NCBI GenBank assembly: GCA_015065105.1
Contig: SVQZ01000002.1
Location: 78,811 to 142,810 of the forward strand
Direction of reading: 5' to 3'
Origin: Oscillospiraceae bacterium
GTDB lineage: Bacteria > Bacillota > Clostridia > Oscillospirales > CAG-272
Length of the DNA stretch: 64,000 nt
Part shown: positions 13,272-40,370 of the stretch, in pieces
How positions within the stretch are numbered: position 1 is the first letter of the stretch
Layout: each line of letters opens with the position of its first letter
Translations under genes and position numbers: made by a program
The notes under the pieces: generated by a model
The model's input: only the letters and a program-made list of their open reading frames with translations
What the model was told of the DNA's origin: nothing
The model's database searches: none

Positions 13272-13356
13272 TGGTGCGAGAAACGGGACTTGAACCCGTA
13301 CGGTGTGAACCACACGCCCCTCAAACGTGCGCGTCTGCCAGTTCCGCCACTCTCGC
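13272..13356 (-). tRNA. tRNA-Leu (anticodon GAG), class II with long variable arm, encoded CCA
   Basis: Reverse complement reads GCGAGAG...CACGT-TTGAGGG-GCGTG...GGTTCAAGTCCCGTTTCTCGCACCA (85 nt). Anticodon loop is TT-GAG-GG and the T-loop is GGTTCAAGTCC. Confidence 0.9.
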
Positions 13357-13509: not shown

Positions 13510-14037
13510 TTAAGCACCTGAGTACTTTTTATCTTTAATTATCTTGAAAATAGCGGCAACATCATTCATTGCATCATGTGAAACAAGCTCATAGCCGGCC
13601 AACTTCATTCTGTTTGAGTTTTTTTCATGATTTTGTGCTACCAGCATACTTTCAAGGTCATAGACGGGAAAAGGAGAATAAGGTATTCTTTGATCCCGAT
13701 CAAGCATTATACACTTATAAAATATACCGCTTTCAACCGGGTATGGAACATCGGTTAAAACAGAATAATCCTTATAATATTTTAGATAAAACTCCCAAAA
13801 TGCACTAAGCAGTTCTTCTGACGAGTCAAAAAACATTTCTGCATTTTTTAAAGTGTCAAAAACATTTTCTTTTGTCCATGGATCACTTATTTCATCAATT
13901 TTGATGTTTCTTGCGCCGTAAAAAGAATCTATTTCCCTTGTTTTATAACATACCTTTACGGCAATGCTCAGTACATCACCGTAAAGACCGTCGGTTTCCG
14001 CATCGATTATAAACAATTTGTCGTTTAAATACTTCAT
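13510..14037 (-). CDS. DEDDh-type 3'-5' exonuclease (DnaQ/oligoribonuclease-like), last gene of the cmr operon
   Basis: ExoI 'FIIDAETDG' and ExoIII 'SHDAMNDV' (H-x4-D). I place the start at the ATG at 14037 (MKYLNDK...), 7 nt after the cmr6 stop. The track's GTG at 14103 would overlap cmr6 by 59 nt. Confidence 0.7.
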   Translation of the reverse strand: MKYLNDKLFIIDAETDGLYGDVLSIAVKVCYKTREIDSFYGARNIKIDEISDPWTKENVFDTLKNAEMFFDSSEELLSAFWEFYLKYYKDYSVLTDVPYPVESGIFYKCIMLDRDQRIPYSPFPVYDLESMLVAQNHEKNSNRMKLAGYELVSHDAMNDVAAIFKIIKDKKYSGA

Positions 14038-14044
14038 TTGTTTC

Positions 14045-14899
14045 TTAGTCAGCTTTTTTAGTTTCGTCTGAAAGTACCCCGAAACCAACGTTGGTTTTGG
14101 CACCTATACCGAAATCCTTCAGGATGATTTTGAAAAGCTCTTTCTTATTTTCAGCACTTATAATACCGTCATGTAAAGAAAAAGAAAACTCAAATTCTAC
14201 GTTTGGTTTAACCTTAACAAGAGTTAACGGAACGGGATTTTTCGTTTCATCCGCTCCATGAGGAGTTATTGCTTCAAGAGCTATTATTGAATTATTATCG
14301 GTAACGACAGGATAAGAATCATAAAACGTATCTCTTTGACACATCGGCAGATTCTTTTTTTGCAGTTTATTATTAACGGTTTCCTCAACGACACCTTCGA
14401 ATATTTCTTCTTCAAGCTTTTCTATATCGACATCACCGGTAAGCTTCAAATTTTCTCTTAAGACTAATGAAACATAGTCTTTGTGGGAAAATGCGCTTCT
14501 TAAAGTTCCCTTGATCGAAGATCCGGGTATATAGGGCAAACCGGTTACGTAATCAAAACTGAATCCGAGCCCGATCTCTCCCTTTCCTCCGTAACCGTGA
14601 GCATATCCTAAACCGATCAATAAACCGGGATATGCGGTTTTTAATGAGAAACGGTAGTCATCGTTTTTATAAACCGATAATTTCGGAGGCGAGATTTTTA
14701 AAAATGCCCTGTTTCTTGAAGCAAAGAAATCCGATCTCTTTTCTTCATATTTGTTGAATACTATAATTGACTTATTTGCTCTATAGTCCCAAAACGGTTT
14801 TGTAAAAGAAACGTTATCATAGTATTCAACGTTGAATGCGTAATGCAGATTTTTTGTTTCAAATCTGAATTCACTTTCTTGTGAATTATTATTTTCCAT
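14045..14899 (-). CDS. cmr6: Type III-B RAMP protein Cmr6
   Basis: 'GLPYIPGSSIKGTLRSAF' and a C-terminal G-rich loop 'GAKTNVGFGVL'. The ATG at 14899 is preceded by AAGGGAG; the track start at 14920 is a TTG. Confidence 0.8.
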   Translation of the reverse strand: MENNNSQESEFRFETKNLHYAFNVEYYDNVSFTKPFWDYRANKSIIVFNKYEEKRSDFFASRNRAFLKISPPKLSVYKNDDYRFSLKTAYPGLLIGLGYAHGYGGKGEIGLGFSFDYVTGLPYIPGSSIKGTLRSAFSHKDYVSLVLRENLKLTGDVDIEKLEEEIFEGVVEETVNNKLQKKNLPMCQRDTFYDSYPVVTDNNSIIALEAITPHGADETKNPVPLTLVKVKPNVEFEFSFSLHDGIISAENKKELFKIILKDFGIGAKTNVGFGVLSDETKKAD

Positions 14900-14912
14900 A
14901 AAATTCACTCCC

Positions 14913-15314
14913 TTAAACAATTTTATACAGATTCATAGCAAGCTTTAAAGCTATAGCCGCGTTATATATTTCTTCTTTAACTTCGGATTCATTGGGTGCT
15001 TTGTCAACATAATCGTATAATGCAGTTTGGGGGATATTGTTGAAATCGGTACCGTTCAAATTATCGTTTATAAGAACGTAGATGATCTTGATCAACGTAT
15101 CTCTGCTTTTTAAAGCGCCCTCCTGCTTAGAGTAAAAAGCAACGGCTGCCTTAAGACTGCCCATTGCTATAGCTGCACCGAAGGAGGAAATATATCCGCG
15201 AAATGTTTTACTGATCTCGGTGAGCTTGGTGTCTTCATTTAGCTTGGCGATTCCGGCATTCTTTAAAGCTTCGTATGCCTTTGGGATAAGCTCCTCTATA
15301 CGTTTTTTGTTCAC
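14913..15314 (-). CDS. cmr5: Type III-B small subunit Cmr5 (Cas11 family)
   Basis: 133-aa helical protein between cmr4 and cmr6, with 'FRGYISSFGAAIAMGSL'. The GTG start overlaps the cmr4 stop (GTGA). Confidence 0.7.
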   Translation of the reverse strand: MNKKRIEELIPKAYEALKNAGIAKLNEDTKLTEISKTFRGYISSFGAAIAMGSLKAAVAFYSKQEGALKSRDTLIKIIYVLINDNLNGTDFNNIPQTALYDYVDKAPNESEVKEEIYNAAIALKLAMNLYKIV

Positions 15315-16075
15315 TTTGTTTTCTCCTCCAATACACTAACTTCGCAAAGTCCGTAGCCTATACTTGCATTACCGCCGAATTGAATTACGTTTAACTTTTT
15401 TAAATGTTTGATAAACTTGTTAAGAAGCTTCTTGTTACTGTATGAGGTGGTTACCGTAACGTAAAAAACGCTCTGATGAGGAACGATCTCTTCATACCAA
15501 AGGTTATCGCTTTTACCGTTTTCAAGTTTGTTTCTTGCTATTACGGGAAGTGATATAGATCTATAATCGCTGTCATTCATAACAAGGAGATGGTTGATTC
15601 CGAAAACATCTTTCAGACCGTTTGTGACAGGGCAGGTAATGCCTTCAACACAGTTGTTGCCGGGGATGTTCGTTACAAGATCAGCTTTAAGACTGATGCC
15701 CGCGTTCAAGGACAACGACAGATCGTTGAATATATCAATGGCACGTTGTGTGGTTACGAGTTCGTAAGGGTTGGTACCCTTTGACGAACGCATGGGACGT
15801 GCAATGATATTTGCACTTAAAAATTTAAGCTTACCGGGAGCACCGTCTCCCTCTGCACCGAAAACGTTGTTCAAATCATCGAAGCCTGTATTTCTGAATG
15901 CTTCTCTGAATGCGCCCTTAACTCCGCTTGAATTGATGGTAGGATAACCGGTAACGGGATCTTTTTCCACACTGTTGTCAATAATATCAAAGTTTTCATC
16001 ACCGTTTCCAACGTAAAGATTTGTTAAACATCTTAATTTTAATATTTTTGTGTACATACGTGCTTTTGTGTACAT
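15311..16075 (-). CDS. cmr4: Type III-B backbone RAMP Cmr4 (Cas7 family)
   Basis: 'NLYVGNGDENFDIIDNSVEKDPVTGYPTINSSGVKGAFREAF' (acidic residue in the catalytic loop is present) and a C-terminal 'GGNASIGYG' loop. GGAGG RBS upstream. Confidence 0.85.
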   Translation of the reverse strand: MYTKARMYTKILKLRCLTNLYVGNGDENFDIIDNSVEKDPVTGYPTINSSGVKGAFREAFRNTGFDDLNNVFGAEGDGAPGKLKFLSANIIARPMRSSKGTNPYELVTTQRAIDIFNDLSLSLNAGISLKADLVTNIPGNNCVEGITCPVTNGLKDVFGINHLLVMNDSDYRSISLPVIARNKLENGKSDNLWYEEIVPHQSVFYVTVTTSYSNKKLLNKFIKHLKKLNVIQFGGNASIGYGLCEVSVLEEKTK

Positions 16076-16078
16076 ATC

Positions 16079-17089
16079 TTAGCCTCCTAATTTAACCAAT
16101 TTATTCAGTCCGTACGTATCGTTATAAAAATAATCTTCGCTTGCAACGTCAAAATAGAATACGCTGCCTGCTTTAATAACGTTATAAAGCTTCTCGCTCG
16201 GTCTTATTTTTAATTTGTTGTTTGAATCGTAGCTTGAAGAAAGGGTTCTTAAAGTACCTGTTTTAACTATCGAGTAATCGGTATATTTTATATGCTTTTT
16301 CAATAAGAGATCGGAAAAAGCATACCAGACTCCGTCACCACAGACCTCTTCAATCTCTTTTGTTATATCATAAGAATCGCAAAGGGGCTCTGCGTTTAGT
16401 TTAAAACAGGATTTTTCACGTCCCATATAACAAACGGTATCGGAGATTTTCGTATCAAGCTCGGCTGCCACAGCAAAGCAATATTCTTTTTTAAGATACA
16501 TATACAGCTTTTTGAAGTATGCCTCGTCCTTTTTATTCTTATCTATTCCCACTCTTTCGCAAGATTCGAATATATCCGAAACAATAGCTTTATCAGATAT
16601 ACGCATATAGCTTGTTTCTCCCAAGAATCTTCCGTGGCTCTTGATGTCGTAATCTTTGGGGACATGTATGCTTCCGTGAGAGGTGGATATCACGGTATCT
16701 GACATTTCAAGAGGGGAATAAAAAGAGTGTACGGCATCGTGGTTTAAAGGGGCAGGGATGTATTTTTCCCCTTTATTATCCATAATAAACAAGGGTGAAA
16801 CCGAACGTATCTTTCCTAAGCGGTTATCGGCATCAACCATATATGCCTTTTCTCCGATCAGCTCGTTTTGTTTGCTTCTGTCCTCATAAACTCTATCGGT
16901 ATTCAAGAGGTAATTTTGCTCAAGAAGAACGTATCTCAGCATACCGAGAATAGTTGTCTGCGAGGGCAGAGGAAGAGAGGATATATAATAGCTTTCACTG
17001 ATAAGGCTTGAAGCTCCCGCTATACGGAAGGTGTTTTCGCCTCCGAAAAAGTACGGCTCCAAAGGAGTAAGCTTAATGAGATATTTCAT
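16079..17089 (-). CDS. cmr3: Type III-B Cmr3 (Cas5 family)
   Basis: N-terminus 'LTPLEPYFFGGENTF', and its position between cas10 and cmr4. Confidence 0.75.
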   Translation of the reverse strand: MKYLIKLTPLEPYFFGGENTFRIAGASSLISESYYISSLPLPSQTTILGMLRYVLLEQNYLLNTDRVYEDRSKQNELIGEKAYMVDADNRLGKIRSVSPLFIMDNKGEKYIPAPLNHDAVHSFYSPLEMSDTVISTSHGSIHVPKDYDIKSHGRFLGETSYMRISDKAIVSDIFESCERVGIDKNKKDEAYFKKLYMYLKKEYCFAVAAELDTKISDTVCYMGREKSCFKLNAEPLCDSYDITKEIEEVCGDGVWYAFSDLLLKKHIKYTDYSIVKTGTLRTLSSSYDSNNKLKIRPSEKLYNVIKAGSVFYFDVASEDYFYNDTYGLNKLVKLGG

Positions 17090-17091
17090 TC

Positions 17092-18801
17092 TTATTTACC
17101 TGCCTTTTCTATGAAGAATTTCGAGAGCCTTAAGATAGATTCAAAAGCCTTTACGTAATCGCCCTTATGCTCTGTGTCTGTCAGCATTATACGTCTTCGG
17201 CAGAGGATATTTTCAAAGAAACGGGAGGATATTTCTTTAATATCTTCATCCGTTAAACTGTTTATATCCGTTGCGGCATATACCGCTTTATCAATACGCT
17301 CTTTTACGACGGTTGTACTGCTCAGGCAAATTTCATCATTGTATTTTCCGATCTCTGTTATGATGGAATCGAACACGTCATCCGCGGCTCCGAGACCTTT
17401 AATAAACGATTTGATCGAATCGGCTTTTGATAAAGCCGAAGAAAGATCGCAGAGCTGAGAATTTTTAAAATCAATGATGTTTTTCTTTATTCCGGATAAA
17501 AAGTTTTCAAACTTCTTATGGGCGGTATTATCAAATATGTTGTCCATAAGGCAGGAAAGCGTTTCATCTCCGATGACGTTGTTAAATAAGGTTTTATTCT
17601 TTTCCAGCGCGTAAATTACAGAGTGAATGCCTTTGTTTTTGTCATCAGTATTGAGTGCCGGAGCGTAATAAGAGGAAAGAATACTTTTGAAGGATCCGAA
17701 TTCATCATTGGGTATAAGAAGCTTTATACCCTGTCCGCTTCCCTTCATAAAATCTATCATCATTGCATCTTTTCCGGGTACCGATTCTTTAACTTCATAA
17801 AGTGCGTTGATACTGCTGTTAAGAGTTTCGTAAAGAGGGAATTTTTCGTATCTTATCGCAATACCAAAGGAAACGGAGGGAGAATCATTATTGTTTGCCA
17901 CGGTATTTTTAAAGATTTCGCGTATATCATGACAAAGATCGAATACGGTTTTTTCATTTCTATATACAGGGGCAATGAAAAGCAGATCGTCTCCGCCCGC
18001 ATATACCGTCATTGCGCCGAATTCTGTTATCAGATCGTGCGCCTTTTGTGCGTAATCAAAGCAATTTTTCGAAAAATCGCTGACATTTTCATCTCCGATA
18101 CTGTTTATGTAGTTACCGATTCCGTCGCCGTCCGCTTCAACTACCGCAAAGTACTCACTTCTTTTTAAGCCGTCCTTTGTACCGGCAATGCTTACGATAT
18201 CACGGAATTTTTCTTGCTCTTTATCTAACAGCCAAAGATGGGGATAGGCATTAGCAACGTAGTTCTTGACAGAATCATTTCTGAACTTCCTGCCCTTGAA
18301 TATCAGCTTGAAGGGATTGTCGTTGGTTTCGCTGATGTTAGGAGAGGGCATTTGTTCAAGAGAATCGAGGATCTTTGAGATATTTAAAAATGCAGAGCCG
18401 TTTATTTTATCTTCCGGAAGGGTCGTCCAATGAATCTGGAGATACTGCTTGAGAAATTCCACCGTATGCTTATACTCTTCGGAATCCTTTATAAGCCCGA
18501 GAGCTGTTGTAACGGTCTCTGCCATTTCATTTTCCGATTTAAGAATAATATTTTCGATATCTATAGCTGAATCGATCTTAATGATGATTCTGTCGTGATA
18601 TCTTCCGATGCCGTCTTTGTAAACGGTATTATTGAAATGGGGCGATAATATCGTTACCTCTGGATTTGAAGGGAGGTTACGGCATATTGTCTCGGTCAGT
18701 CCCGAGAACATCTTGCTGGCAAACCACATCGCCGCAGGGGAATGAGCAAGCAATAACGTGTCAAAGATAGGACCTATGGTTATACCGATATATTCAGCCA
18801 T
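17092..18801 (-). CDS. cas10: Cas10/Cmr2, short form (~569 aa) with intact GGDD palm and no evident HD domain
   Basis: 'VVEADGDGIGNYI' and 'VYAGGDDLLFIAP'. The probable start MAEYIGITIGPIF at 18801 follows the cmr1 stop closely, whereas the track start at 18921 overlaps cmr1. Only ~300 aa precede GGDD. Confidence 0.85.
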   Translation of the reverse strand: MAEYIGITIGPIFDTLLLAHSPAAMWFASKMFSGLTETICRNLPSNPEVTILSPHFNNTVYKDGIGRYHDRIIIKIDSAIDIENIILKSENEMAETVTTALGLIKDSEEYKHTVEFLKQYLQIHWTTLPEDKINGSAFLNISKILDSLEQMPSPNISETNDNPFKLIFKGRKFRNDSVKNYVANAYPHLWLLDKEQEKFRDIVSIAGTKDGLKRSEYFAVVEADGDGIGNYINSIGDENVSDFSKNCFDYAQKAHDLITEFGAMTVYAGGDDLLFIAPVYRNEKTVFDLCHDIREIFKNTVANNNDSPSVSFGIAIRYEKFPLYETLNSSINALYEVKESVPGKDAMMIDFMKGSGQGIKLLIPNDEFGSFKSILSSYYAPALNTDDKNKGIHSVIYALEKNKTLFNNVIGDETLSCLMDNIFDNTAHKKFENFLSGIKKNIIDFKNSQLCDLSSALSKADSIKSFIKGLGAADDVFDSIITEIGKYNDEICLSSTTVVKERIDKAVYAATDINSLTDEDIKEISSRFFENILCRRRIMLTDTEHKGDYVKAFESILRLSKFFIEKAGK

Positions 18802-19945
18802 CGTTACGTTCCTCCGCGAAAAAATTATTATATCCGTGAAATACGCGAGAATACCTCTCATTATTTTTCGAAACAGGGAAATAATTATTAAAGAATGCTT
18901 CCAAAAAATTGTCTGTGTCAAAATTATCCGGGGTCTTCATGGAAACAAATTCATTTGTTTTTTTATTGAAAAATTTAAAGGTCTGTATTTCTTCGTTGCT
19001 TAAAATACGTTGATTTATATTTTTGCCGATAATATAAACATTATTTTCTATTATTTTGAAAAAGACAGGAGAGGGAAGCCTTTCTATTCTCAGATTATCC
19101 TTATTAGATCTTGTGTTGCTTATCTGAACGGTGAAGCCTTCCTTTTTGAATCTGATAATTTCTCCCATGCCGAGCAGGCATCTGACGTACCTATGATCAT
19201 TTGCCGTTTTTTGGTTTATTCTTCTGGAATATTTCCAAGGTCTTATACAGGTTGATTCGTTATTTATATTTTCTAAATATTTGAAAAGAAAGGACCCTTC
19301 AAAATCATCATTTATTCGGCATCCCGATTTCATAACAGAATACAGGATTTTGATCTTATCAAAAGTGGTTCTTTTGAAATGATCATTATCATTAACAGAA
19401 AATCCGTAACATGCTCTTGAATTATATTTACGGCAAAGAATCTGCGGTATATTATCCGGTTTTGCAGAAGGGTAATCATTTATCTTTTGAACGGTAAAGC
19501 TTCCGAAGCCCTTGTTTTGCATTCTTCCGAAGTTTGTAACAATGAAAAAGTCGCAGATATTGTGGAGAATGACTTCGGTTAGTTCGGAATTAAAGCAGAT
19601 GAGAGTCATTGTACAGGTATTACAGAAAACGAATCTTGCTTTTATAGAATCCTTACCCATGTTTCCGTAATAAATTCCGCGTTCCGGAGGATCGATATCT
19701 TCAACTTTTTCGGAGTATTCAAATCTGAGCTTATAATTAAGGGCTTTGGGCAGCTTGGAGTTGTCTGCCTTTACTCCGAAACCGACGAGCCAGTTCTCGG
19801 GAACCTTGCCGTTTAAACGTTCAATTATGAATTTGTCCAATTTTGGCTTGACTTCGCTTGCTCTGAGGGTAGCTCCCGATTCATTCGCCTGAAAATGAAT
19901 GAGGGGGGTATGCTGCTTTAACTCAATAACGGTTTTGAAATTCAT
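18794..19945 (-). CDS. cmr1: Cmr1-like RAMP protein (first gene of the type III-B operon)
   Basis: The position, the size (383 aa), the N-terminal 'TPLIHFQ...ATLRASEVKPKL' and the G-rich loop 'NFGRMQNKGFGSF' all fit. Assignment is by context plus RAMP motifs. Confidence 0.6.
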   Translation of the reverse strand: MNFKTVIELKQHTPLIHFQANESGATLRASEVKPKLDKFIIERLNGKVPENWLVGFGVKADNSKLPKALNYKLRFEYSEKVEDIDPPERGIYYGNMGKDSIKARFVFCNTCTMTLICFNSELTEVILHNICDFFIVTNFGRMQNKGFGSFTVQKINDYPSAKPDNIPQILCRKYNSRACYGFSVNDNDHFKRTTFDKIKILYSVMKSGCRINDDFEGSFLFKYLENINNESTCIRPWKYSRRINQKTANDHRYVRCLLGMGEIIRFKKEGFTVQISNTRSNKDNLRIERLPSPVFFKIIENNVYIIGKNINQRILSNEEIQTFKFFNKKTNEFVSMKTPDNFDTDNFLEAFFNNYFPVSKNNERYSRVFHGYNNFFAEERNDG

Positions 19946-20123: not shown

Positions 20124-20152
20124 ACCCGTCTGCTGTTTTTTCGCAGACGGGT
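20124..20152. terminator. Hairpin terminator between array 1 and the cmr operon
   Basis: Perfect 10-bp stem ACCCGTCTGC / GCAGACGGGT with T-rich flanks on both strands. Confidence 0.65.
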
Positions 20153-20183
20153 AATTTTGTTTTTATTATTTTGATGAATATAA

Positions 20184-20762
20184 AAATTAAAGTATTAAAG
20201 ACAAAGTGCGACAGGAGTTTTAAATGATGGTGAAACCGAAGATGCAGCGGCCATGTATCAATTCCTATAAGGTAATGTGCGACGTAACACAAATAGTGAA
20301 ACAAAAAGTAAAGCTCCAAAGCGTTCCGTATCAATTCCTATAAGGTAATGTGCGACATAATTCTCCTATTTGGAATAGGATTAGCTATTTACAAACTAAT
20401 AAGGTTCTTTATAAACCTTGTTAGAAAAACTCGGGATGATCTTGTATCAATTCCTATAAGGTAATGTGCGACATACTTGTGCAATATGTGGTAAGAAATT
20501 TAATATACGTATCAATTCCTATAAGGTAAGGTGCGACGAATATTGTGTATATAATGTTCGGTGTATCTATATGCATGATAGTATCAATTCCTATAAGGTA
20601 ATGTGCGACGCTGATGAAGTCAGAACCTATAATCCGTACCAGAAAAGCTTTGATAAGCTTAAGTATAAATTCCTATAAGGTAATGTGCGACAGGACACAC
20701 TCACATGGCAAAGGCAAACAAAGAACTCTCTACGTATAAATTCCTATAAGGTAATGTGCGAC
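20184..20762 (-). CRISPR. CRISPR array 1 (8 repeats, the distal one degenerate), transcribed leftward from the leader at 20763-20854
   Basis: 29-nt repeats (+ strand GTATCAATTCCTATAAGGTAATGTGCGAC) at 20255, 20328, 20444, 20509, 20581, 20663 and 20734, plus a degenerate remnant ending ...AAAGTGCGAC at 20212. Spacers are 42, 44, 87, 36, 43, 53 and 42 nt. In crRNA sense the repeat is GTCGCACATTACCTTATAGGAATTGATAC, which ends like the ATTGAAAC-type 8-nt tag. Confidence 0.95.
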
Positions 20763-20854
20763 AACTGTAAAATCAAGGGTTGTCAATAGTATTATACAAT
20801 AAACACTGTAAAAAGTCAAGGAAAAGTCGGTCGGTCAAATTTAGAATATTCAAT
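20763..20854 (-). promoter_or_regulatory. CRISPR leader 1 with promoter (TTGACT-17-TATAAT on the - strand; + strand coordinates 20814-20819 and 20791-20796)
   Basis: 92 nt, reverse-complement identical to 21572-21663 except for 2 mismatches. It abuts the first repeat. Confidence 0.8.
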
Positions 20855-20867
20855 TGGTAAATAAAAA

Positions 20868-21092
20868 ATGTTAAATGAAATTCTTGATTTCACGTATTCG
20901 GATGACAAAGGGGTGTATTTGAACTATAACGGAAAAAGGATGTTTGTATCGGCATTTTATAAAAAACTTTATGAAAAAATAACCGTATCAGACAAAACGC
21001 TCAGTTATATGGAGCTTATACGTATAGAAATACAGAAGCTTATCGAATATATAAATAACGGTACGGCATATATACCATATAAGTACTATTGA
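20868..21092 (+). pseudogene. cas1: cas1 remnant (C-terminal ~74 codons only)
   Basis: 'GKRMFVSAFYKKLYEKI...SYMELIRIEIQKLIEYINNGTAYIPYKYY' resembles the Cas1 C-terminal helices. The frame is closed by a stop 2 codons upstream, and leader 1 occupies the place of the missing ~250 codons. cas2 follows 15 nt downstream. Confidence 0.65.
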
Positions 21093-21107
21093 ACGGGAGG
21101 CAAAAGA

Positions 21108-21368
21108 ATGTATATTATTTTAACGTATGATATAGCCACCGTTAAAATATCCAAGGTAAGAAAGGTTTGTAAAAAATATCTTCGTCATATTCAAAAGTCT
21201 GTTTTTGAAGGGAGCTTAACCTGCTCTCAACTGAAGCTGTTGAAAAAGGAGCTTAAGCCTTTAATTTCTCCGCAAACGGACAGCATAATAATATATGAAT
21301 TTGAAAATTTAAAATTCACTTCTAAAGAACAGCTGGGAGTATCCAACGAATACACGAATGTTATCTGA
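21108..21368 (+). CDS. cas2: CRISPR-associated endoribonuclease Cas2
   Basis: 86 aa, 'MYIILTYDI...KVRKVCKKYLRHIQKSVFEG' ferredoxin-fold pattern. Confidence 0.85.
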   Translation: MYIILTYDIATVKISKVRKVCKKYLRHIQKSVFEGSLTCSQLKLLKKELKPLISPQTDSIIIYEFENLKFTSKEQLGVSNEYTNVI

Positions 21369-21571
21369 GTGGGGTAAAGCCTTATCTCTGTTTGAATATT
21401 CAGACTCTTCTATGCTTAACAATCTGTAAATCCGGAAAAAGTCGGTCGATCGGTTTGCCGAGTATTTATAAGGGTAAGTTAGCTCCCAAAGGGTGATATT
21501 TCTGCTAAAAAACGGTTTTTACACAGAAAAAGTCGGTCGGTCATAAAGCCTTTTTTTATATCGGCTTAAAT

Positions 21572-21663
21572 ATTGAATATTCTAAATTTGACTGACCGAC
21601 TTTTCCTTGACTTTTTACAGTGTTTATTGTATAATACTATCGACAACCCTTGATTTTACAGTT
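21572..21663 (+). promoter_or_regulatory. CRISPR leader 2 with promoter (TTGACT 21607-21612, 17 nt, TATAAT 21630-21635)
   Basis: Inverted copy of leader 1, ending directly at the first repeat of array 2. Confidence 0.8.
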
Positions 21664-22242
21664 GTCTCACCTTACCTTATAGGAATTGATACTTTTTACA
21701 ATGTGCGGCTTAGTGTGCTATATTTTTTATTATTGTCTCACCTTACCTTATAGGAATTGATACTTGTCCAATCTTTCATCTTGCATGCCTCCAAAATAAT
21801 TTATTCGTCGCACATTACCTTATAGGAATTGATACCCTTTCGCTTTGCAGCTTCAAGGATAGAATCTTCATCAAGTCGCACCTTACCTTATAGGAATTGA
21901 TACGCGATCCTTATTTTCTTTATCTTCATGATGTATTTACCTCCTCTTAAAAGATACGTCGCACATTACCTTATAGGAATTGATACAAAAGAAATCCAGG
22001 TTTTCTACTCTCACGAAGTGAACGGATTTCAGAAATAGTTACTTCGTGCGTTGCACCTTACCTTATAGGAATTGATACAACATTGGCCATACAATAGATC
22101 TAGAAGCATTTGACGGTGCATAGTATGCAATGTCGCACATTACCTTATAGGAATTGATACTTTATAGAGGAAAAATGGAAAACTGGCAAGGAAAAAACCT
22201 ATTAGATATAGCGTCGCACATTACCTTATAGGAATTGATTAC
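21664..22242 (+). CRISPR. CRISPR array 2 (8 repeats), transcribed rightward
   Basis: Repeats at 21664, 21735, 21807, 21875, 21958, 22050, 22132 and 22213; the last carries a 1-nt insertion (GATTAC). Consensus is GTCGCACATTACCTTATAGGAATTGATAC, with GTCTCACC / GTCGCACC / GTTGCACC variants. Spacers are 42, 43, 39, 54, 63, 53 and 52 nt. Confidence 0.95.
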
Positions 22243-22321: not shown

Positions 22322-23032
22322 ATGCAGATAAAGCTATTTTTTAAAACCGAGCCGGGCTTTTCTCTGCCCTTTAATTACAATCATCAGCTTCAAAGCGGTA
22401 TATACAGAAAGCTCGGTGAGATAGGGAGATCGGATTTTATTCATGACGTCGGATATACAAGCAAGCACTTCAAGGGCTTTGTTTTCGGCTCGGTCAACGG
22501 CGATCTTTCGGTGAAAGAAAAAAAGCTGGTGTTTGGAAAATCCTTATTCTTTGAGCTCAGATCCTTTTCCTATGAATTTTGCGATGATATTCAGAGAAGC
22601 TTTGAGAGGTTTCCGTATATGAAGCTTTTTGATACCGAGCTCGGTTTATCGGATATGAAGCTCGGCAATGTTCATATCAACAGCGAAAGGGCGGAATTTT
22701 GCGCGCAGACTCCGGTGATAGTGCATAAAAGAACACAGGACGGTAAGACTGTATATTATTCGCCGGATGATGAAGAGTTTCTGCCCGGTTTAAAGGAGAA
22801 TTTTATAAAGAAGTATTCTGCTCTTACAGGTAAAGAGGCTTCCGGAATATCTATCGATACCTTCGGTAATTACAAGAAAACGGTAACGAATTATAAGGGA
22901 ACCTGGATAAATGCCTACAAAACGAATTTTATTATATCGGGGGATAGCGAGAGCCTTGAATTTATTTATAATACGGGGCTCGGTGCAAAAAACTCCCAGG
23001 GCTTCGGAATGCTTGATCTCTTGCAGTCTTAA
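22322..23032 (+). CDS. cas6: CRISPR repeat endoribonuclease Cas6
   Basis: 236 aa, 'PFNYNHQLQSGIYRKL' and a C-terminal G-rich loop 'GLGAKNSQGFGML'. Confidence 0.85.
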   Translation: MQIKLFFKTEPGFSLPFNYNHQLQSGIYRKLGEIGRSDFIHDVGYTSKHFKGFVFGSVNGDLSVKEKKLVFGKSLFFELRSFSYEFCDDIQRSFERFPYMKLFDTELGLSDMKLGNVHINSERAEFCAQTPVIVHKRTQDGKTVYYSPDDEEFLPGLKENFIKKYSALTGKEASGISIDTFGNYKKTVTNYKGTWINAYKTNFIISGDSESLEFIYNTGLGAKNSQGFGMLDLLQS

Positions 23033-24412: not shown

Positions 24413-24496
24413 CTGTCGATTTATGGGGAACGATTTTCAGGGGGGTACCCTACCGAAACGCAAAATCGTATGTTATGATAGATGCGAGGTGGTGAG

Positions 24497-24976
24497 ATGC
24501 ATCTGTTTGCAGAGATAAAAAACGATTACGTAACGGGCAGTGAAAGCTACAAGGCTCTTGCAAAAAAATATTCGGCGGATTATTCCGAGATCCTTTTGAC
24601 TGCAAGGGAAGAGGGTTGGGCGGAACAGAGAAGGGAATTCAGAAATTCTGCACAGTATTGTGAAAAAAGGCTTGAGGAGGTAACGCTTAAGCTTATCCGA
24701 AAGCTTGAAAGGGCAATTGACGAGCTTGACAGCTACGTTACAACGGTGCATATCAAGGAAAAGAATACCGAATATGACGAGGAAGGCAAAAAGGCTGTTT
24801 TTGAGAGGGTAGTGGAGAGTGAAGAGATATGCATCAAGAAGGGTCTTATAGACAGAACTGCCATAAAGCAGCTGGCGGCAACGATCAAGGAGCTCAAAGG
24901 CAGGGATATGCAGGAGGAGGAAGCCGAGGGAGTTGAGGTGATACTCAGCGATGAGGCGAGGGAGCTTGCAAAATGA
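24497..24976 (+). CDS. Phage terminase small subunit
   Basis: 'MHLFAEIKNDYVTGSESYKALAKKYS...' HTH-like N-terminus and an acidic C-terminus. Stop overlaps the terL start. The ATG at 24497 is preceded by GAGGTGG. Confidence 0.6.
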   Translation: MHLFAEIKNDYVTGSESYKALAKKYSADYSEILLTAREEGWAEQRREFRNSAQYCEKRLEEVTLKLIRKLERAIDELDSYVTTVHIKEKNTEYDEEGKKAVFERVVESEEICIKKGLIDRTAIKQLAATIKELKGRDMQEEEAEGVEVILSDEARELAK

Positions 24977-26355
24977 AAAGACATATTATCGGAAAACCGA
25001 ATGAAAAGCAGGTCTTATTTATGCAGGATTCTCACAGGTATATAGCCTTCGGCGGAGCAAGAGGCGGAGGTAAGAGCTGGGCGGTCAGAGCCAAAGCAAA
25101 GCTTCTTTGCTTTAACTATCCCGGAATAAGGATACTTATTGTAAGGCGGACCTATCCCGAGCTTTACAACAACCATATCAACATACTCCGCCGTGAGCTT
25201 GCGGGCTCGGTAAAATATAATGACAAGGAAAAGCTTATGACATTTGAGAATTCAAGTACCATAAGCTTTTCTTACTGTGCACATGATAAGGATCTTGACA
25301 GACTGCAGGGTGTGGAATACGATGTGATTTTTCTTGACGAGGCTACACAGCTTTCCGAGTTTCAGATGAGAGCTATATGTGCCTGCGTACGTGCGGTGAA
25401 CGATTACCCTAAACGTGTATATTACACCTGCAATCCGGGAGGAAAGGGTCATTCTTATATAAAGAGGCTCTTTATAGACCGTAGATATGAGGACGGGGAA
25501 AATCCGAAGGATTACTTCTTTATTCAGTCCCTTGTTACCGATAATACGGCTCTTATGGATGCCGACCCCGATTACATAAAGCAGCTTGACGCTCTTCCCG
25601 CAAAGCTTAAGGACGCATGGAGATACGGCGACTGGAATATTTTTGAGGGTCAGTTCTTTGAGGATTTCAGAGATGATCCCGAACATTATGACGACCGCCG
25701 TTATACCCACGTTATACCGGCCTTTGAAGTCCCTTTTGGGTGGAATATCTACCGTTCCTACGACTTCGGCTATAATAAGCCCTTTTCATGTGCATGGTGG
25801 GCTGTTGATTATGACGGTATTATCTATCGTATCCTTGAGCTTTACGGCTGTACCAAGAATCCAAATGAGGGTGTTAAATGGACTCCCGACCGACAGTTTG
25901 AAGAGATCGCAAGGGTGGAAAGTGAGCATCCCTGGCTTAAGGGCAAGCAGATACAGGGTGTTGCCGATCCTTCTATATGGGATACATCGCGGGGAGAGAG
26001 CGTAGCTGATACCGCTGCCCGTTACGGAATCTATTTTACCCCGGGAGATAACAAGCGGATAGCCGGTTGGATGCAGATGCATTACCGTCTTTCCTTTGAC
26101 AGCCGGGGTTATCCCATGATGTATATCTTTGATAACTGTAAGGCGTTTATCAGAACTCTGCCCCTGCTGACCTTCAGCGAGGTTAATCCCGAGGATCTTG
26201 ATTCCTCGCTGGAGGACCATTGTGCAGATGAGGCCCGTTATTTCTGTATGATGAGACCTATCTCTCCCACCGCTTTGCACACGGCATCAAAGCCCTGTGA
26301 CGACCCCTTAAATTTGATGAATGCGGCCGCAAAAAACAAAATGAGGAGGATATGA
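24973..26355 (+). CDS. Phage terminase large subunit
   Basis: Walker A 'GGARGGGKSWA', Walker B 'VIFLDEATQ', and C-terminal nuclease acidic residues. Confidence 0.85.
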   Translation: MKRHIIGKPNEKQVLFMQDSHRYIAFGGARGGGKSWAVRAKAKLLCFNYPGIRILIVRRTYPELYNNHINILRRELAGSVKYNDKEKLMTFENSSTISFSYCAHDKDLDRLQGVEYDVIFLDEATQLSEFQMRAICACVRAVNDYPKRVYYTCNPGGKGHSYIKRLFIDRRYEDGENPKDYFFIQSLVTDNTALMDADPDYIKQLDALPAKLKDAWRYGDWNIFEGQFFEDFRDDPEHYDDRRYTHVIPAFEVPFGWNIYRSYDFGYNKPFSCAWWAVDYDGIIYRILELYGCTKNPNEGVKWTPDRQFEEIARVESEHPWLKGKQIQGVADPSIWDTSRGESVADTAARYGIYFTPGDNKRIAGWMQMHYRLSFDSRGYPMMYIFDNCKAFIRTLPLLTFSEVNPEDLDSSLEDHCADEARYFCMMRPISPTALHTASKPCDDPLNLMNAAAKNKMRRI

Positions 26356-28097
26356 TGTTTAAATTTAAAAAAGAAGAAAAAACAGACCTGAAGCTACCTA
26401 TAGGGGAAGAGGAAATTCTTCTTGCCCGGCAGACTCTTCAGAAATACAAGAGAGATAAAACAAATCTTGAGCAAAAGATAATTTCAAACGAGGATTGGTG
26501 GAAGCTTCGTCATTGGGAAACGATGCGTAAGGATAAAAATGAATACAGTCCTGCCTCTGCCTGGCTCTGGAACGTCATCGTTTCGAAGCACGCAGAAACG
26601 ATGGATTCCTATCCCGAGCCCATAATACTACCCCGTATGCCTGATGACAGCGAGGAGGCAAAAAAGCTTTCTTCTGTAGTTCCTCTTATACTTGAGCAAA
26701 ACGATTTTGAAAGCGTGTATTCAGACGTTCAATGGTATAAGCTCAAGCAGGGAACGGGAGCCTACGGTATATTCTGGGACGTTGGTAAAAACGGAGGACT
26801 TGGCGATATCTCTATCAAAAAGGTAGATATTCTTTCTCTTTTCTGGGAGGGAGGAGTAAATGATATCCAGGATTCAAAGAATTTGTTTTATGTAAATCTC
26901 TGCGATAACGATACCCTTGTTTCTCTTTATCCCGAGCTTTCCGGGAGAATGGGCTCGGATGCAACGGAGATCGCAAAATACCGTTATGACGATAACGTTG
27001 ACGTGAGCGGAAAAAGTGCTGTGGTCGATTGGTATTATAAGAAGACGGTAAATCAGAGAACGGTGCTTCATTACTGTAAATTCGTGGGAGATACGCTTTT
27101 GTTTTCAACAGAGAATCTTCCGGATCAGTATCCGAACGGTTGGTATGACCACGGCCTTTATCCCTTTGTTTTCGATCCCTTATTTTCTATTGAGGGTACC
27201 CCCTGCGGTTACGGGTATATAGACATTGCAAAGGATACCCAGATGCAGATAGACCTCCTTAGCCGTTCTATTGTAAACAATGCCATGCTTGCCTCCAAGC
27301 CGAGATATTTTATAAGAGGCGACGGTAGTGTAAACGAGGAGGAGTTTGCCGATTGGACGAAGGATTTTGTTCATACCAACGGTAATCTTGCAAAGGACAG
27401 CATTCTTCAGATAGAGGTCAACCCCATCAACAGTATTTACGTTAATATACTTAACCACAAGATAGACGAGATAAAGGAGACTCTCGGAAACCGTGATTCT
27501 GCCAACGGCGGTATAAACAGCGGTGTTACTGCCGCCTCTGCCATTGCCGCATTGCAGGAGGCGGGAAGTAAGCTTTCGCGAGATTCCACAAGAGCGGCAT
27601 ACCGTGCCTACCGTCTCGTTATCATACAATGCGTTGAGCTTATAAGACAGTTCTACGATTTTCCCAGATTTTTCAGAATCATAGGAAAAACGGGAGAAAA
27701 TGAATTTACCTCCTATTCAAATAAGGGTATAACCATCAGGAGCCAGGGCGAGAGCTTCGGTGTGGATATGGGTATGCGTCTCCCCTTGTTTGATATTGAA
27801 ATAAACGCACAAAAGTGTAATCCTTATTCGAAAATGTCTCAAAATGAGCTTGCTCTTCAGTTCTACAATCTGGGCTTTTTCGAGGTGGACAGAGCTCAAA
27901 GCGCTTTAGCTTGTCTTGAAATGATGGATTTTGCCCATAAGGACAGCGTTGTTGCCCGTATAACAGGAAATTATGAAAAAAAGAGAAAAAGTGAGCTTTC
28001 AAGGGCTGTGTTACCTGCCAAAAGGGTGACTCTTCCGAAGGAAGCAAGCGCTGTAGAACGGGCAAGAGCGGTGAGTGCAGAGGGGGTGATACCGTGA
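26352..28097 (+). CDS. Phage portal protein
   Basis: 581 aa directly after terL with overlapping start and stop; size and position are typical of a portal. Confidence 0.7.
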   Translation: MMFKFKKEEKTDLKLPIGEEEILLARQTLQKYKRDKTNLEQKIISNEDWWKLRHWETMRKDKNEYSPASAWLWNVIVSKHAETMDSYPEPIILPRMPDDSEEAKKLSSVVPLILEQNDFESVYSDVQWYKLKQGTGAYGIFWDVGKNGGLGDISIKKVDILSLFWEGGVNDIQDSKNLFYVNLCDNDTLVSLYPELSGRMGSDATEIAKYRYDDNVDVSGKSAVVDWYYKKTVNQRTVLHYCKFVGDTLLFSTENLPDQYPNGWYDHGLYPFVFDPLFSIEGTPCGYGYIDIAKDTQMQIDLLSRSIVNNAMLASKPRYFIRGDGSVNEEEFADWTKDFVHTNGNLAKDSILQIEVNPINSIYVNILNHKIDEIKETLGNRDSANGGINSGVTAASAIAALQEAGSKLSRDSTRAAYRAYRLVIIQCVELIRQFYDFPRFFRIIGKTGENEFTSYSNKGITIRSQGESFGVDMGMRLPLFDIEINAQKCNPYSKMSQNELALQFYNLGFFEVDRAQSALACLEMMDFAHKDSVVARITGNYEKKRKSELSRAVLPAKRVTLPKEASAVERARAVSAEGVIP

Positions 28098-28420
28098 TAA
28101 TTGCAGAGTATGACAAGAGCCGTATAGAGTTAAAGCTTTCGGGTCATGCAAATTATGCCCGCAAGGGAGAGGATATAGTTTGTGCCGCGGTATCAGCCTT
28201 GGCTTTTACCTATGCGGAGCATAACGGAGGTTATACCGAGAATAACGGTGCTATGGTGATCAAGGCAGTAAGCAGAGATCCTGTAGAGGAAAGGATCCTT
28301 GACGTTATAATAGGCGGATTAAGGATGATTTCAAGAGAGTATCCCGACAATCTTTTGATCAAAGAGAATATACAGAGACACGCAGGAGAGACTGCAGAAA
28401 GGAAAGAGCATGAAATATAG
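28094..28420 (+). CDS. Prp-like cysteine protease (ribosomal-processing protease family, phage type)
   Basis: 'SGHANYARKGEDIVCAAVSAL' contains the His/Cys dyad pattern of Prp. It sits between the portal and scaffold genes. Confidence 0.7.
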   Translation: MIIAEYDKSRIELKLSGHANYARKGEDIVCAAVSALAFTYAEHNGGYTENNGAMVIKAVSRDPVEERILDVIIGGLRMISREYPDNLLIKENIQRHAGETAERKEHEI

Positions 28421-29183
28421 ATTCAGGCTTCAGTATTTCGCCGAGGAGGCGGAGAAAAATGAAAATACGGGCGGTAAACCTACCCTTGACGCCGAAGGGG
28501 AAGCAGTGAACATAAAAACTGATTTTGACGAGCTTATACGCGGGGAATACCGCGATGAATACAGCAAAAGGGTTGAGGATATCGTCAAAAACAGACTTAA
28601 GGATCACTCGGAATTAAAGAAAAATCTCGGAGATATCACCTCTGCTCTTACAGAATTAAAAAACGAGCTCGGAATAGAGGCAGAAGGGGTTGACGGGATA
28701 ATCGCAGAGCTTAAGGAGCATATCCGAAAGGAAAAGGGCGACGTTGATGCGAAGGGTGCAGATACCCGTGAAAAAAAGGAGAACGCTCCCCCCTTGGTTA
28801 ATTCGGAGAATGCCGGAAACACTATGGCAAAGCTTTTAAAGGGCTGTGATGAAACAAAGGAATTGTATCCGCAGTTTGATATTAAGAAGGAATTTTCCAA
28901 CCCTGATTTCAGAAGAATACTCAAGCTTACCGATAACGATCCCAAAAAGGCCTTTGAGATACTGCATCATGATGAGATAATAGCCGGCGTTATAAAGGAT
29001 ACGGCAAGAATGACCGAAGAACGTCTGGCGGGCAGTATAGCATCAAGGGCGGCAAGACCGGCGGAGGGCGCTCAAAGCGCCGCAAGTGCCGTTTATATAA
29101 ACCGCGATCCTAAGTCCTTGTCCAAAGCGGACAGGGCGGATATTAAAAAAAGAGTACGCAGAGGCGAAAGAATAGTCTGGTAG
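28410..29183 (+). CDS. Phage scaffolding protein
   Basis: Charged, coiled-coil-rich 257-aa protein immediately upstream of the capsid gene. Confidence 0.55.
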   Translation: MKYRFRLQYFAEEAEKNENTGGKPTLDAEGEAVNIKTDFDELIRGEYRDEYSKRVEDIVKNRLKDHSELKKNLGDITSALTELKNELGIEAEGVDGIIAELKEHIRKEKGDVDAKGADTREKKENAPPLVNSENAGNTMAKLLKGCDETKELYPQFDIKKEFSNPDFRRILKLTDNDPKKAFEILHHDEIIAGVIKDTARMTEERLAGSIASRAARPAEGAQSAASAVYINRDPKSLSKADRADIKKRVRRGERIVW

Positions 29184-29209
29184 CTCTGCGAAAAAGAAAG
29201 GAAAAAGAT

Positions 29210-30454
29210 ATGGAATTAGTTTTTGATATTCAGGCATTTGCCAATGCAAACGTACAGACAACAGCTGCAAACGAATCGGGAAACGATTTAAGTCCCGCAA
29301 TGAAGGAGTATTACGATACTGAGCTTCTTGAAAACGCAAAGGAAGAGCTGTTTTTTAATCAGTTCGGTAAGGTACAGTCTCTTCCCGAGGGTAACGGAAA
29401 GAAGGTAGAGTGGAGAAAGTTCGACACCTTCGGCAAGGCTACAACACCTCTCGAGGAAGGTGTTACTCCCGACGGTAATACAATGAACATGAAGAGTGTT
29501 GAGGCTCAGGTAGAGCAGTACGGCGATTATACCACCGTATCCGATATGCTCGATCTTACCGCCGTTGACGACGTTATCCTCTCCTGCACCGAGGAGCACG
29601 GAACCCAGGCCGGCCTTACCCTTGATACTCTTACAAGAAATGAGATATGCAAGGGCACTAACGTTTCCTTTGCGCCCAGAAACGTTGACGGTGTTGAGGT
29701 GCCCGTCAGCCTCCGTTATGAGCTTGATTCAAGCGCAAAGCTTACCTCCACTGTTGTAAACAAGGCAGTTACCAAGCTTAAGAAGAATAAGACACCCAAG
29801 ATAAACGGCAAGTATATCGCTATTATCCATCCTTCTGTTTCCGAGGATCTGCGCGAGTCCGAGGGCTGGATAGAAGCTCACAAGTACGCTGCTGTTACCG
29901 AGATCTTCAACGGCGAGATAGGTGAGCTTCACGGTGTAAGATTTATCGAATCCAATGAGGCCCCCATATTCAAGGGTGGGGATCTTATTCCCGGTGTTAC
30001 AAGAAATCTCACCGTTTCCTCCGATGTATCTTCTTCCTATACTATCACCGTAGGTACTATCGAGGGTCTTAGCTCTGTAGTAAACAGATACGTGCTTATC
30101 AACGGCGAAAAATACAAGGTTACCGGCTTCAACGGTACAAACAAGATAATTCTTGATGCAGCGGTTACCCTTAAGTCGGGTGATAACATTTATCCCGGTG
30201 AAGGCGGTGCTAAGGGCTGTGCTGTTTACGGTTGTATCTTCTTTGGCAGAGACGCTTACGGAAGAGTTGAACTTTCCGGCGGAGCCATGGAGATGATCGT
30301 TAAGTCAAAGGGCTCCGCAGGAACAGCAGACCCCTTGAATCAGCGTTCTACCGTTGGTTGGAAGGCGGCACACGCAGCGGCTATTCTTTACGAGGAAAGA
30401 CTTCTTCGCGTTGAATGCGGTTCATCCTACAGCGAAACCGACGAGGCTAACTAA
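29210..30454 (+). CDS. Phage major capsid protein (HK97-fold type)
   Basis: 414 aa, 'FNQFGKVQSLPEGNGKKVEWRKF...EGVTP', and its position after the scaffold gene. Strong RBS. Confidence 0.75.
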   Translation: MELVFDIQAFANANVQTTAANESGNDLSPAMKEYYDTELLENAKEELFFNQFGKVQSLPEGNGKKVEWRKFDTFGKATTPLEEGVTPDGNTMNMKSVEAQVEQYGDYTTVSDMLDLTAVDDVILSCTEEHGTQAGLTLDTLTRNEICKGTNVSFAPRNVDGVEVPVSLRYELDSSAKLTSTVVNKAVTKLKKNKTPKINGKYIAIIHPSVSEDLRESEGWIEAHKYAAVTEIFNGEIGELHGVRFIESNEAPIFKGGDLIPGVTRNLTVSSDVSSSYTITVGTIEGLSSVVNRYVLINGEKYKVTGFNGTNKIILDAAVTLKSGDNIYPGEGGAKGCAVYGCIFFGRDAYGRVELSGGAMEMIVKSKGSAGTADPLNQRSTVGWKAAHAAAILYEERLLRVECGSSYSETDEAN

Positions 30455-30474
30455 AAAAGGAGGAAAGAAAGAGT

Positions 30475-30678
30475 ATGAATAAGGCAACCGAAACAGTTAA
30501 GATAAAGCTTCCCCGTATCAGCGGAAAGGACGAATCTGTTTTCGTTTCTGTGGGAGACCTTAATTGGAGGATCCGCCGCGGCTTTGAGGTGGAGATTCCT
30601 CTTTGTGCATATGACGTTTTGCTTAATGCTGAGATCGCAGAGGATAACGCCATTGCTTTTATGGAAGAGGTACTTTAA
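30475..30678 (+). CDS. Small phage-module protein, unknown function
   Basis: 67-aa ORF with a GGAGG RBS, in register with the module. Confidence 0.5.
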   Translation: MNKATETVKIKLPRISGKDESVFVSVGDLNWRIRRGFEVEIPLCAYDVLLNAEIAEDNAIAFMEEVL

Positions 30679-30734
30679 GAACTGTGAGAGGAGGGAGGGC
30701 TTGCCCTCCCTTCTGTTAAAGAAAGGAGTATAAT

Positions 30735-31097
30735 ATGACGGTAGGTGAAATAATCAGTAATGTCGAAAAGCAAAGACCGGGTTGTAATCTGGTCAGATAT
30801 GATTTCATCGATGAAATAAACCGTATAGAGACGGAAATTTATGAAAATATTCTTTCATGTCATGAGGGTGAACATATCTGTTATACGGTTACTTTGGATT
30901 CGGATACAGTCAGCGTTCCCGAAATGTTTTGCGAGCTCTACATTTACAGGATCCTCGCCAAGATAGATCTTCATAACGGAGATATAAAAAGATATACCAA
31001 TAATATGCTGCTTTACAATAACCTTATGAGCAGCTTTACGGATTGGTATAACCGCGGCAATATGCCAAAGCAAAGATCAAAAATGAGGTGGTTCTGA
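30735..31097 (+). CDS. Phage-module protein, unknown function (candidate head completion/adaptor)
   Basis: 120-aa ORF with an AGGAG RBS. Its stop overlaps the next start (TGATG). Confidence 0.5.
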   Translation: MTVGEIISNVEKQRPGCNLVRYDFIDEINRIETEIYENILSCHEGEHICYTVTLDSDTVSVPEMFCELYIYRILAKIDLHNGDIKRYTNNMLLYNNLMSSFTDWYNRGNMPKQRSKMRWF

Positions 31098-33016: not shown

Positions 33017-33185
33017 CAGCTTTTTCAAAAAAATAGACAGAAGAGCAGATCATAAGCAGATGATAGAATATTTCGATTATCTTGCCGAAAGGCTTTCCTA
33101 TATTCTTGAAAATATCGACGAGGAAAATCTTTGCGAGGATCTTTCGAAAAAAATAAAAGGAGAAAACAGCGATGAGCAGAAATAA
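33009..33185 (+). CDS. Possible 58-aa ORF (below the track cutoff)
   Basis: The ATG at 33009 overlaps the stop of the 642-aa ORF, and its stop overlaps the start of the next ORF. 'MADSFFKKIDRR...' is preceded by GGAGGCAGAGGAG. Confidence 0.35.
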   Translation: MADSFFKKIDRRADHKQMIEYFDYLAERLSYILENIDEENLCEDLSKKIKGENSDEQK

Positions 33186-40314: not shown

Positions 40315-40370
40315 ACCATACAAAGTCTTGAGTTTAATAACAAAAAGCAGAGAACGGTCGTTCTCTGCTT

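Follow-up and report, generated by a model that had tools for sequence, protein, structure and literature searches.

A type III-B CRISPR-Cas locus with two divergent arrays and a cas1 gene reduced to a C-terminal stub

In the genome of an uncultured gut Oscillospiraceae bacterium (assembly GCA_015065105.1), a type III-B locus of short palindromic repeats that are clustered and regularly interspaced (CRISPR) was found in which two divergent arrays, cas2, cas6 and the effector genes are kept, while cas1 is reduced to a 74-codon stub lying flush against one of the two leaders. The analysis covered a 64,000-nucleotide (nt) stretch of contig SVQZ01000002.1 (C45:78811-142810; hereafter the window, to which all coordinates refer unless another contig or locus is named), part of a 2.47-Mb genome that is 97.7% complete in 64 contigs. 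Its housekeeping proteins fall into clusters of at least 90% identity with proteins of metagenome-assembled genomes labelled Clostridia, Ruminococcaceae or Oscillospiraceae. The stub is the C-terminus of Cas1, and the lost gene was most likely a fusion of reverse transcriptase (RT) and Cas1 of ~635 amino acids (aa), not a plain cas1.

The Cas1 stub and its junction with leader 1

The stub (20868-21092, plus strand) holds the last ~70 residues of the Cas1 domain. In searches with hidden Markov models it matched TIGR03641 at model positions 258-322 of 324 (E 4.4e-10; 39.4 bits against a cut-off of 304.1) and TIGR00287 (E 1.8e-7; 30.5 bits against 71.7), but not Pfam PF01867, and it aligned with the C-terminal parts of two Cas1 structures in the PDB (residues 242-311 of 315 in 2yzs and 250-317 of 322 in 4wj0); it does not qualify as a full-length member of the Cas1 family, whose proteins combine an N-terminal beta-sandwich with a catalytic alpha-helical domain. 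An in-frame TAA lies 2 codons upstream of the open reading frame (ORF). A preliminary description of this DNA had taken the ORF for a Cas1 C-terminal fragment closed at that point, and the TIGR03641 match together with the stop codon bears this out. The last of the metal-binding catalytic residues of Cas1 is located within a D-x-x-E/D-x-F-(K/R)-P motif. The family alignment places the corresponding …LD(I/F)(S/A)(E/D)(I/L)FKP… motif of longer homologues ~20 residues upstream of the stub Met, and the stub therefore contains no catalytic residue. No Shine-Dalgarno sequence precedes the stub, whereas a strong one precedes cas2, and a promoter scan found no rightward promoter upstream of the stub.

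The sequence between leader and stub records how the two were joined. Leader homology stops at 20854, and RT-cas1 sequence adjoins it without filler DNA. At this flush junction (20854-20867, plus strand), three-frame translation compared with RT-Cas1 C-termini reads TTGGTAAATAAAAA as L-V-N-K-K, one frame off the stub ORF; TTG GTA AAT AAA AA exactly continues the family consensus …(F)(T/S)L(V/I)N(K/R)K-M-L-N…, and tblastn alignments of RT-Cas1 proteins begin at 20865. The loss of one A from the A-run of the junction brings a TAA (20862-20864) into the frame of the ATG. Judged by this alignment, leader 1 is fused directly to about codon 565 of RT-cas1, and without the conserved internal Met that comes next there would be no 74-codon ORF. 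We infer that ~560 codons of RT-cas1 are gone, that ~79 were left at the deletion, and that the stub is a pseudogene remnant. A conserved family of stand-alone 74-aa mini-genes was also considered and, as a general claim, rejected, its members, which all start at the conserved internal Met, being mostly fragments or products of gene calling: the sequence of P0266 is exactly that of the C-terminus of a 643-aa RT-Cas1 that is intact in L013, L014 and L018, P0292 groups with a protein of 633 aa, and several other ~74-aa homologues lie on contigs of 575-1046 nt.

The gene following the stub is intact. It encodes a Cas2 of 86 aa (21108-21368, plus strand) behind a GGGAGG ribosome-binding site 7 nt upstream, and exceeds the cut-offs of both PF09827 (73.4 bits against 23.8; positions 1-71 of 74) and TIGR01573 (50.1 against 24.5), in agreement with the earlier account of an undamaged cas2. 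Its nearest relatives are likewise 86 aa long, with 51-53% identity.

No other cas1 was found in the genome. Across all contigs, PF01867 gave nothing better than E 0.1, TIGR03641 returned only the stub, and so did tblastn with four full-length RT-Cas1 proteins; neither an RT domain nor Cas1 N-terminal sequence was detected beside the stub or elsewhere, and an RT-Cas1 fusion as such, with a group II intron-like RT domain on the N-terminal side of Cas1, is absent. With no second cas1 in a genome of this completeness, the locus is predicted to be unable to acquire spacers on its own, a consequence that the preliminary description had made dependent on the lack of another cas1.

An assembly artefact can be dismissed. 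On 23 public contigs an identical Cas2 protein is encoded, each time beside the same gene products, the 74-aa ORF among them, and the arrangement was recovered in independent ENA, JGI and Logan assemblies. Two of these, L004 (ENA) and L005 (JGI), are 100% and 99.99% identical to the window and represent a single clone that was assembled independently in each case; L012, which is a diverged strain, has a junction identical to that of the window. The identical spacers of L004 and L005 were discounted as proof of frozen arrays, because both represent the clone of the window.

Relatives of the locus point to the nature of the lost gene. Among the Cas2 relatives whose context could be used, the closest (L008; 48% identity) has the order RT-cas1 (635 aa)-cas2-leader-array, with a repeat, GTAACACCTTACCTTTGAGGAATTGATAC, that is identical at 25 of 29 positions to the C8 repeat variant of the window, and the stub aligns to residues 569-634 of its RT-Cas1 with 45% identity. 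Over its whole length the stub also aligns with the RT-Cas1 proteins of L013, L023 and L035 (40-45% identity), and among the stub homologues in 1.84 billion representative proteins nearly all full-length ones are 630-653 aa long. RT-Cas1 ancestry is most likely because the closest full-length relatives, of 630-645 aa, are all fusions accompanied by a near-identical repeat. An RT-Cas1 fusion is used by the type III-B system of B. fragilis (PMC5704556), and the origin of RT-using CRISPR systems has been addressed before (PMC5513706).

The RT-Cas1-Cas2 modules of gut Clostridia and Bacteroides (L008, L013, L023 and L035) resemble the window in several respects: they share the repeat family (…TACCTTACCT…GGAATTGA(T/A)AC), an 86-aa Cas2 (48-53% identity), 630-665-aa fusions whose last ~70 residues are 40-45% identical to the stub, a motif pair upstream of the -35 box, and arrays flanking the integrase genes. 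The window differs from these intact modules in that the RT domain and ~490 more residues, among them the whole Cas1 catalytic core, are gone, the arrays are divergent instead of direct, and one leader ends at -92. Human-gut relatives, too, often have an interrupted RT-cas1 frame, with ORFs of 78-516 aa in place of 634-643 aa (L015, L020, L024, L027, L030, L031, L032 and L034); as far as these sequences tell, pseudogenisation of RT-cas1 seems frequent in relatives. The closest named Cas2 relative (51% identity), from a Lachnospiraceae metagenome-assembled genome (GCA_017521195.1; L007, 1-1379, and L006), is encoded directly after a CRISPR array trailer with the repeat GTTGGGGAAGCCCGTTATAGGGCATTGAAAC, and no cas1 was found between array and cas2, nor in ~10 kb of L006 downstream of cas2.

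Leaders and arrays

The two leaders form most of a 121-nt inverted repeat (20734-20854 and 21572-21692) that is 96% complementary, far above chance. Its mismatches comprise 2 in the 92-nt leaders (positions 22 and 70), as had been described before, and 3 in the first repeats. Leader 1 (20763-20854, minus strand) and the proximal part of leader 2 (21572-21663, plus strand) each contain an outward TTGACT-17-TATAAT matching the consensus at 11 of 12 positions, at 20819-20791 on the minus strand (-35 box 20819-20814, -10 box 20796-20791) and at 21607-21635 on the plus strand. These are the two best promoter-like sites of the region in the promoter scan, which corroborates their earlier recognition; both leaders retain strong predicted promoters facing outward.

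A short motif, AAAGTCGGTCGGTC, recurs in the leaders, at 20823, 21438 and 21529 and inverted at 21590, and its matches in the window number 6 against 0.29 expected. Leader 2 has the complete set. Its distal part (21369-21571, plus strand) carries two forward copies (21438-21451 and 21529-21542, at -225 and -134 from the array), and its proximal part one inverted copy (21590-21603, at -69). Leader 1 has kept only the inverted copy (20823-20836), and the forward copies are gone. In two human-gut relative lineages, nearly every scanned array with enough upstream sequence shows the same layout: leaders of the L013 and L035 types carry AAAAG(T/A)C(G/T)GTCG in one or two forward copies between -134 and -281, and a single inverted copy between -69 and -79. 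The inverted copy in these leaders lies directly upstream of the -35 box. A weaker analogue of the layout, built on CCGTCGAT, is present in the L008 leader. The preliminary description had regarded the two additional motif copies as decayed duplicates. This no longer stands: since the upstream copies are conserved in the leaders of relatives, they are probably a functional part of leader 2, and leader 1 is the shortened leader that lost them. The 12-17-nt motif pair is a candidate binding site for the integrase, a host factor or a regulator. To our knowledge, such a leader motif pair has not been described for the RT-Cas1 family. In the leaders of the window, L013, L024, L026 and L035, the pair reads AAAAGTCGGTCG forward and CGACCGACTTTT inverted beside the -35 box. 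A 14-16-nt form of the leader motif, GAAAAAGTCGGTCGGAC, also makes up one terminus (40619-40632) of an element resembling a miniature inverted-repeat transposable element (274 bp, at 40345-40670) and recurs at 48801-48814; a 15-mer match of this kind is improbable by chance in a 2.5-Mb genome.

The two arrays, lying within 20184-22242, carry one repeat family in opposite orientation, and the coordinates and elements given for them earlier were all reproduced. In array 1 (20184-20762, minus strand), 7 well-preserved repeats (20255-20762) are followed by a degenerate terminal one (20184-20212; 17 of 29 positions matching), and the spacers are 36-87 nt long. Array 2 (21664-22241, plus strand) consists of 8 repeats, the last with a degenerate 3' end, and has spacers of 39-63 nt. 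Read outward from each leader, the repeat is GTCGCAC(A/C)TTACCTTATAGGAATTGATAC, its 3' end forming a tag, ATTGATAC, which resembles those left on Cas6-processed CRISPR RNAs (crRNAs). The outward orientation of both arrays follows from this tag and from the position of the degenerate repeats, which form their outer ends. Spaced conserved repeats, unique spacers, an AT-rich leader with a promoter and a degenerate distal repeat mark both as CRISPR arrays with leaders. Variant repeats are array-specific, with G25T in both leader-proximal repeats of array 1 and G4T together with C8 in both leader-proximal repeats of array 2. A likely terminator, a hairpin with a T-run read from the DNA, lies past the array 1 trailer (20127-20155, minus strand), and beyond it the cmr operon has promoter-like sites of its own in the promoter scan (20054-20017).

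The spacer lengths between 20213 and 22212 are unusually mixed (36, 39, 42, 42, 42, 43, 43, 44, 52, 53, 53, 54, 63 and 87 nt); in the arrays of intact RT-Cas1 relatives the repeats are spaced by 61-77 nt, that is, with spacers of ~32-48 nt. Arrays 1 and 2 have no spacer in common, and none of the spacers has a second copy in its own genome. A search of 50,697 phage records gave no significant target (best E 0.3), and the 87-nt and 63-nt spacers had no exact 24-mer match in IMG/VR. The genome contains no further array of this repeat, nor any other CRISPR-like array. Other candidates were rejected as ~95-nt tandem repeats; those at C64:9140-9430, C26:47699-48200 and C37:705-900 are tandem repeats of ~80-95 nt with hairpin-like GC-rich cores.

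Origin of the arrangement and differences between strains

On balance, we favor a single deletion, with one end in distal leader 1 and the other inside RT-cas1, which struck an ancestor already equipped with two divergent arrays. This ancestor would have carried RT-cas1, cas2, leader 2, array 2 and cas6 in rightward order, with array 1 read leftward from leader 1 on the other side of RT-cas1 and the two leaders near-identical. One illegitimate deletion, which began in leader 1 at a distance of 92 nt from the first repeat and ended near codon 565 of RT-cas1, would then have joined the two and taken out the distal motifs of leader 1 together with the RT domain and everything catalytic in Cas1, and a later 1-nt loss in the A-run would have left the 74-codon ORF without a ribosome-binding site. 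A deletion of this kind calls for no acquisition after the loss of cas1, as spacers and repeat variants would predate it. The preliminary description had noted a paradox, in that each array seemed to have acquired spacers after its repeat diverged although cas1 was destroyed; within this genome the deletion dissolves the paradox, whereas between strains it persists because of L012 (see below). The near-identity of the leaders is no sign of recent duplication, being the norm for two-array members of the family: in L013 and L035, RT-cas1-cas2 is flanked by arrays left and right, and the leader pair of L013 shows 94% identity across 285 nt, rising to 100% in the proximal ~140 nt.

The arrangement had previously been explained most simply by an inverted duplication or recombination of leader plus array that destroyed cas1. 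Spelled out, leader 2 with its first repeat, or part of array 2, would have been copied in inverted orientation into RT-cas1, for instance through replication template switching, disrupting the gene and founding array 1. The 121-nt inverted repeat, whose homology ends abruptly at 20854 and 21572, would fit such an event, and so would the stub-side leader of L012, which equals leader 2 of the window at both variable positions, so that the ancestral leaders were 100% identical; moreover, the arrays of intact relatives are direct, and the inverted array 1 requires a rearrangement in any case. However, the arrays share no spacer, and all 7 spacers of array 1 would have to be acquired after the loss of cas1 by a genome that has none. 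Furthermore, near-identical leaders are normal in relatives with two arrays, and the copy would need to come to lie precisely upstream of the cmr operon, complete with a trailer and terminator of its own. We therefore no longer regard this as the simplest explanation; it ranks second to the deletion, and we consider it unlikely. Alternatively, an L013-like leaderA-arrayA-RTcas1-cas2-leaderB-arrayB might have been rearranged by an inversion that broke leader A at -92 and RT-cas1 at codon ~565, the inverted 5' part of RT-cas1 being deleted later. This begins from an architecture seen in relatives and yields the observed leader-stub junction, but it needs two illegitimate events, and no 5' remnant of RT-cas1 was found between the array 1 trailer and cmr1 (~240 nt, occupied by the terminator and promoter) or genome-wide; we consider it highly improbable.

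Several observations weigh against the single deletion as well. The comparison with related strains and lineages yielded relatives with RT-cas1-cas2-leader-array, but none with divergent arrays around an intact RT-cas1; the arrays of L013 and L035 are in direct orientation, and the proposed ancestor is itself a reconstruction. If the arrays had been frozen after the deletion, strains should share spacers. L012, which has the same junction, differs from the window in two leader-proximal spacers and in its repeat variants and shares none of the visible spacers with it, and L009, 97.6% identical across the cmr operon, has different trailer-end spacers. Finally, the stub itself has diverged more than its surroundings. 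Between the window and L012, 28 of its 225 nt differ, compared with 3 of 200 in the flanks (2 of 105 in leader and junction, 1 of 95 at the cas2 start; Fisher p = 7e-6), and yet the frame is kept, with a ratio of non-synonymous to synonymous substitution rates (dN/dS) of 0.13 (16 synonymous and 11 non-synonymous changes; P = 6e-6 against neutrality, tested on two alleles, the only ones known), which is unexpected for an old pseudogene.

These features might be read as purifying selection on the stub within an old shared truncation, for example for a role as a Cas2 partner or in coupled cas2 expression, the arrays turning over through a Cas1 acting in trans or through recombination; the heterogeneity of the spacers (36-87 nt) would then be the trace of non-canonical acquisition. 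The low dN/dS, with the frame kept over 28 substitutions, argues for this, as do the different proximal spacers of L012 next to an unchanged junction. The diverged patch starts ~12 nt inside the stub, which makes a donor with the same junction an easier recombination partner, and many ~74-aa homologues with the same Met start exist among the 1.84 billion representative proteins. But these homologues are mostly an effect of gene calling and fragments, as in P0266, P0292 and the short contigs, the stub has neither a ribosome-binding site nor a rightward promoter upstream, and the estimate comes from two alleles, between which a low dN/dS can also arise if the divergence accumulated in an intact donor gene and was then imported by recombination. 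Selection on the stub seems to us quite improbable. The diverged stub has a counterpart in cas10, where a similar mosaic patch of ~500 nt (18084-18583) with ~89% identity between the window and L009, against a background of 98-100%, points to imports by recombination within the cas genes. Most economically, the strain differences are explained by frequent homologous recombination, including an imported stub segment and the spread of the deletion allele or of whole arrays. Under the favored deletion, differences among strains would arise mainly from homologous recombination, visible as mosaic patches, and not from acquisition at this locus.

The effector genes, the genomic island and the meaning of the locus

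To the left of array 1 lies a type III-B effector operon (13510-19945, minus strand), assigned by Pfam and NCBIfam matches. From its promoter end it comprises a cmr1-like gene (18794-19945; no family match), cas10/cmr2 (17092-18801; Cmr2 81.6 bits against a cut-off of 79.4), cmr3 (16079-17089; Pfam Cas_Cmr3 59.6 bits against 21), cmr4 (15311-16075; 120.8 bits against 87), a cmr5-like gene (14913-15314; no family match), cmr6 (14045-14920; 106.6 bits against 51.1) and a terminal ORF of 197 aa (13510-14103), all on the minus strand. Downstream of array 2 follows cas6 (22322-23032, plus strand; 236 aa; PF01881 98.9 bits; TIGR01877 94.2 against 58.65). With cas10/cmr2, cmr3, cmr4, cmr6 and cas6 present, the gene set is that of a type III-B (Cmr) system, and the order of the effector genes is identical in L004, L005 and L009. 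In gene content, which is the extent of this comparison, the operon shares cmr3-6, a small ORF at the operon end and a compact Cas10 without a recognisable HD domain with the SAM-AMP Cmr of the Bacteroides fragilis type (Chi et al. 2023, PMC10600005).

The CRISPR-Cas block of ~9.7 kb sits between tRNA-Leu(gag) (13272-13356) and a conserved metallophosphoesterase gene (23138), and its left flank is chromosomal (MutS, MutL, MiaB, ApbE and Tgt). In genomes of the same genus, tRNA and metallophosphoesterase gene are syntenic; nine of these genomes are without the island and have other, unrelated genes in its place, such as a GH38 mannosidase in G001 (L045, C33:32300-36700) or an amidase and a GDSL protein in G007 (L046, C10:84500-90300). 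Given the syntenic flanks and the unrelated cargo in congeners, we take the block to be a horizontally acquired island in a variable region beside a tRNA gene. No homologue of the stub was found in the 40 relatives searched, and searches of species genomes with the stub and with Cas10 returned no close relatives. A phage-borne CRISPR was rejected in view of the chromosomal left flank, the syntenic metallophosphoesterase gene on the right and the absence of the junction pattern from IMG/VR. Directly to the right of the metallophosphoesterase gene, outside the island, there is a phage packaging and head module (24482-33804) with terS-like, terL, portal, protease, scaffold-like, major head protein and internal virion protein genes; no integrase, tail or lysis gene was seen among the ORFs scanned there.

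A CRISPR system losing adaptation is a fairly ordinary case, well documented here. Type III loci lacking a working adaptation module, and relics with a decayed cas1 beside an intact cas2, have likewise lost or shortened cas1 but retained arrays, cas6 and effector genes; the break in the window is a leader fused to the 3' end of the gene between inverted leaders, and not a frameshift or an insertion-sequence insertion. Judging from the genes present, both arrays may still supply Cas6 and Cmr with crRNAs, and such a locus could defend but could not learn. The locus offers an example, resolved to the base, of a type III system that has lost its spacer-writing enzyme, probably an RT-Cas1 fusion, and has kept its arrays, promoters, Cas6 and effector. 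The conserved leader motif can be tested in RNA-recording work that uses Clostridial RT-Cas1-Cas2, and a dead junction shared between strains whose spacers are not shared bears on the relative parts of recombination and acquisition in the reshuffling of natural CRISPR arrays.

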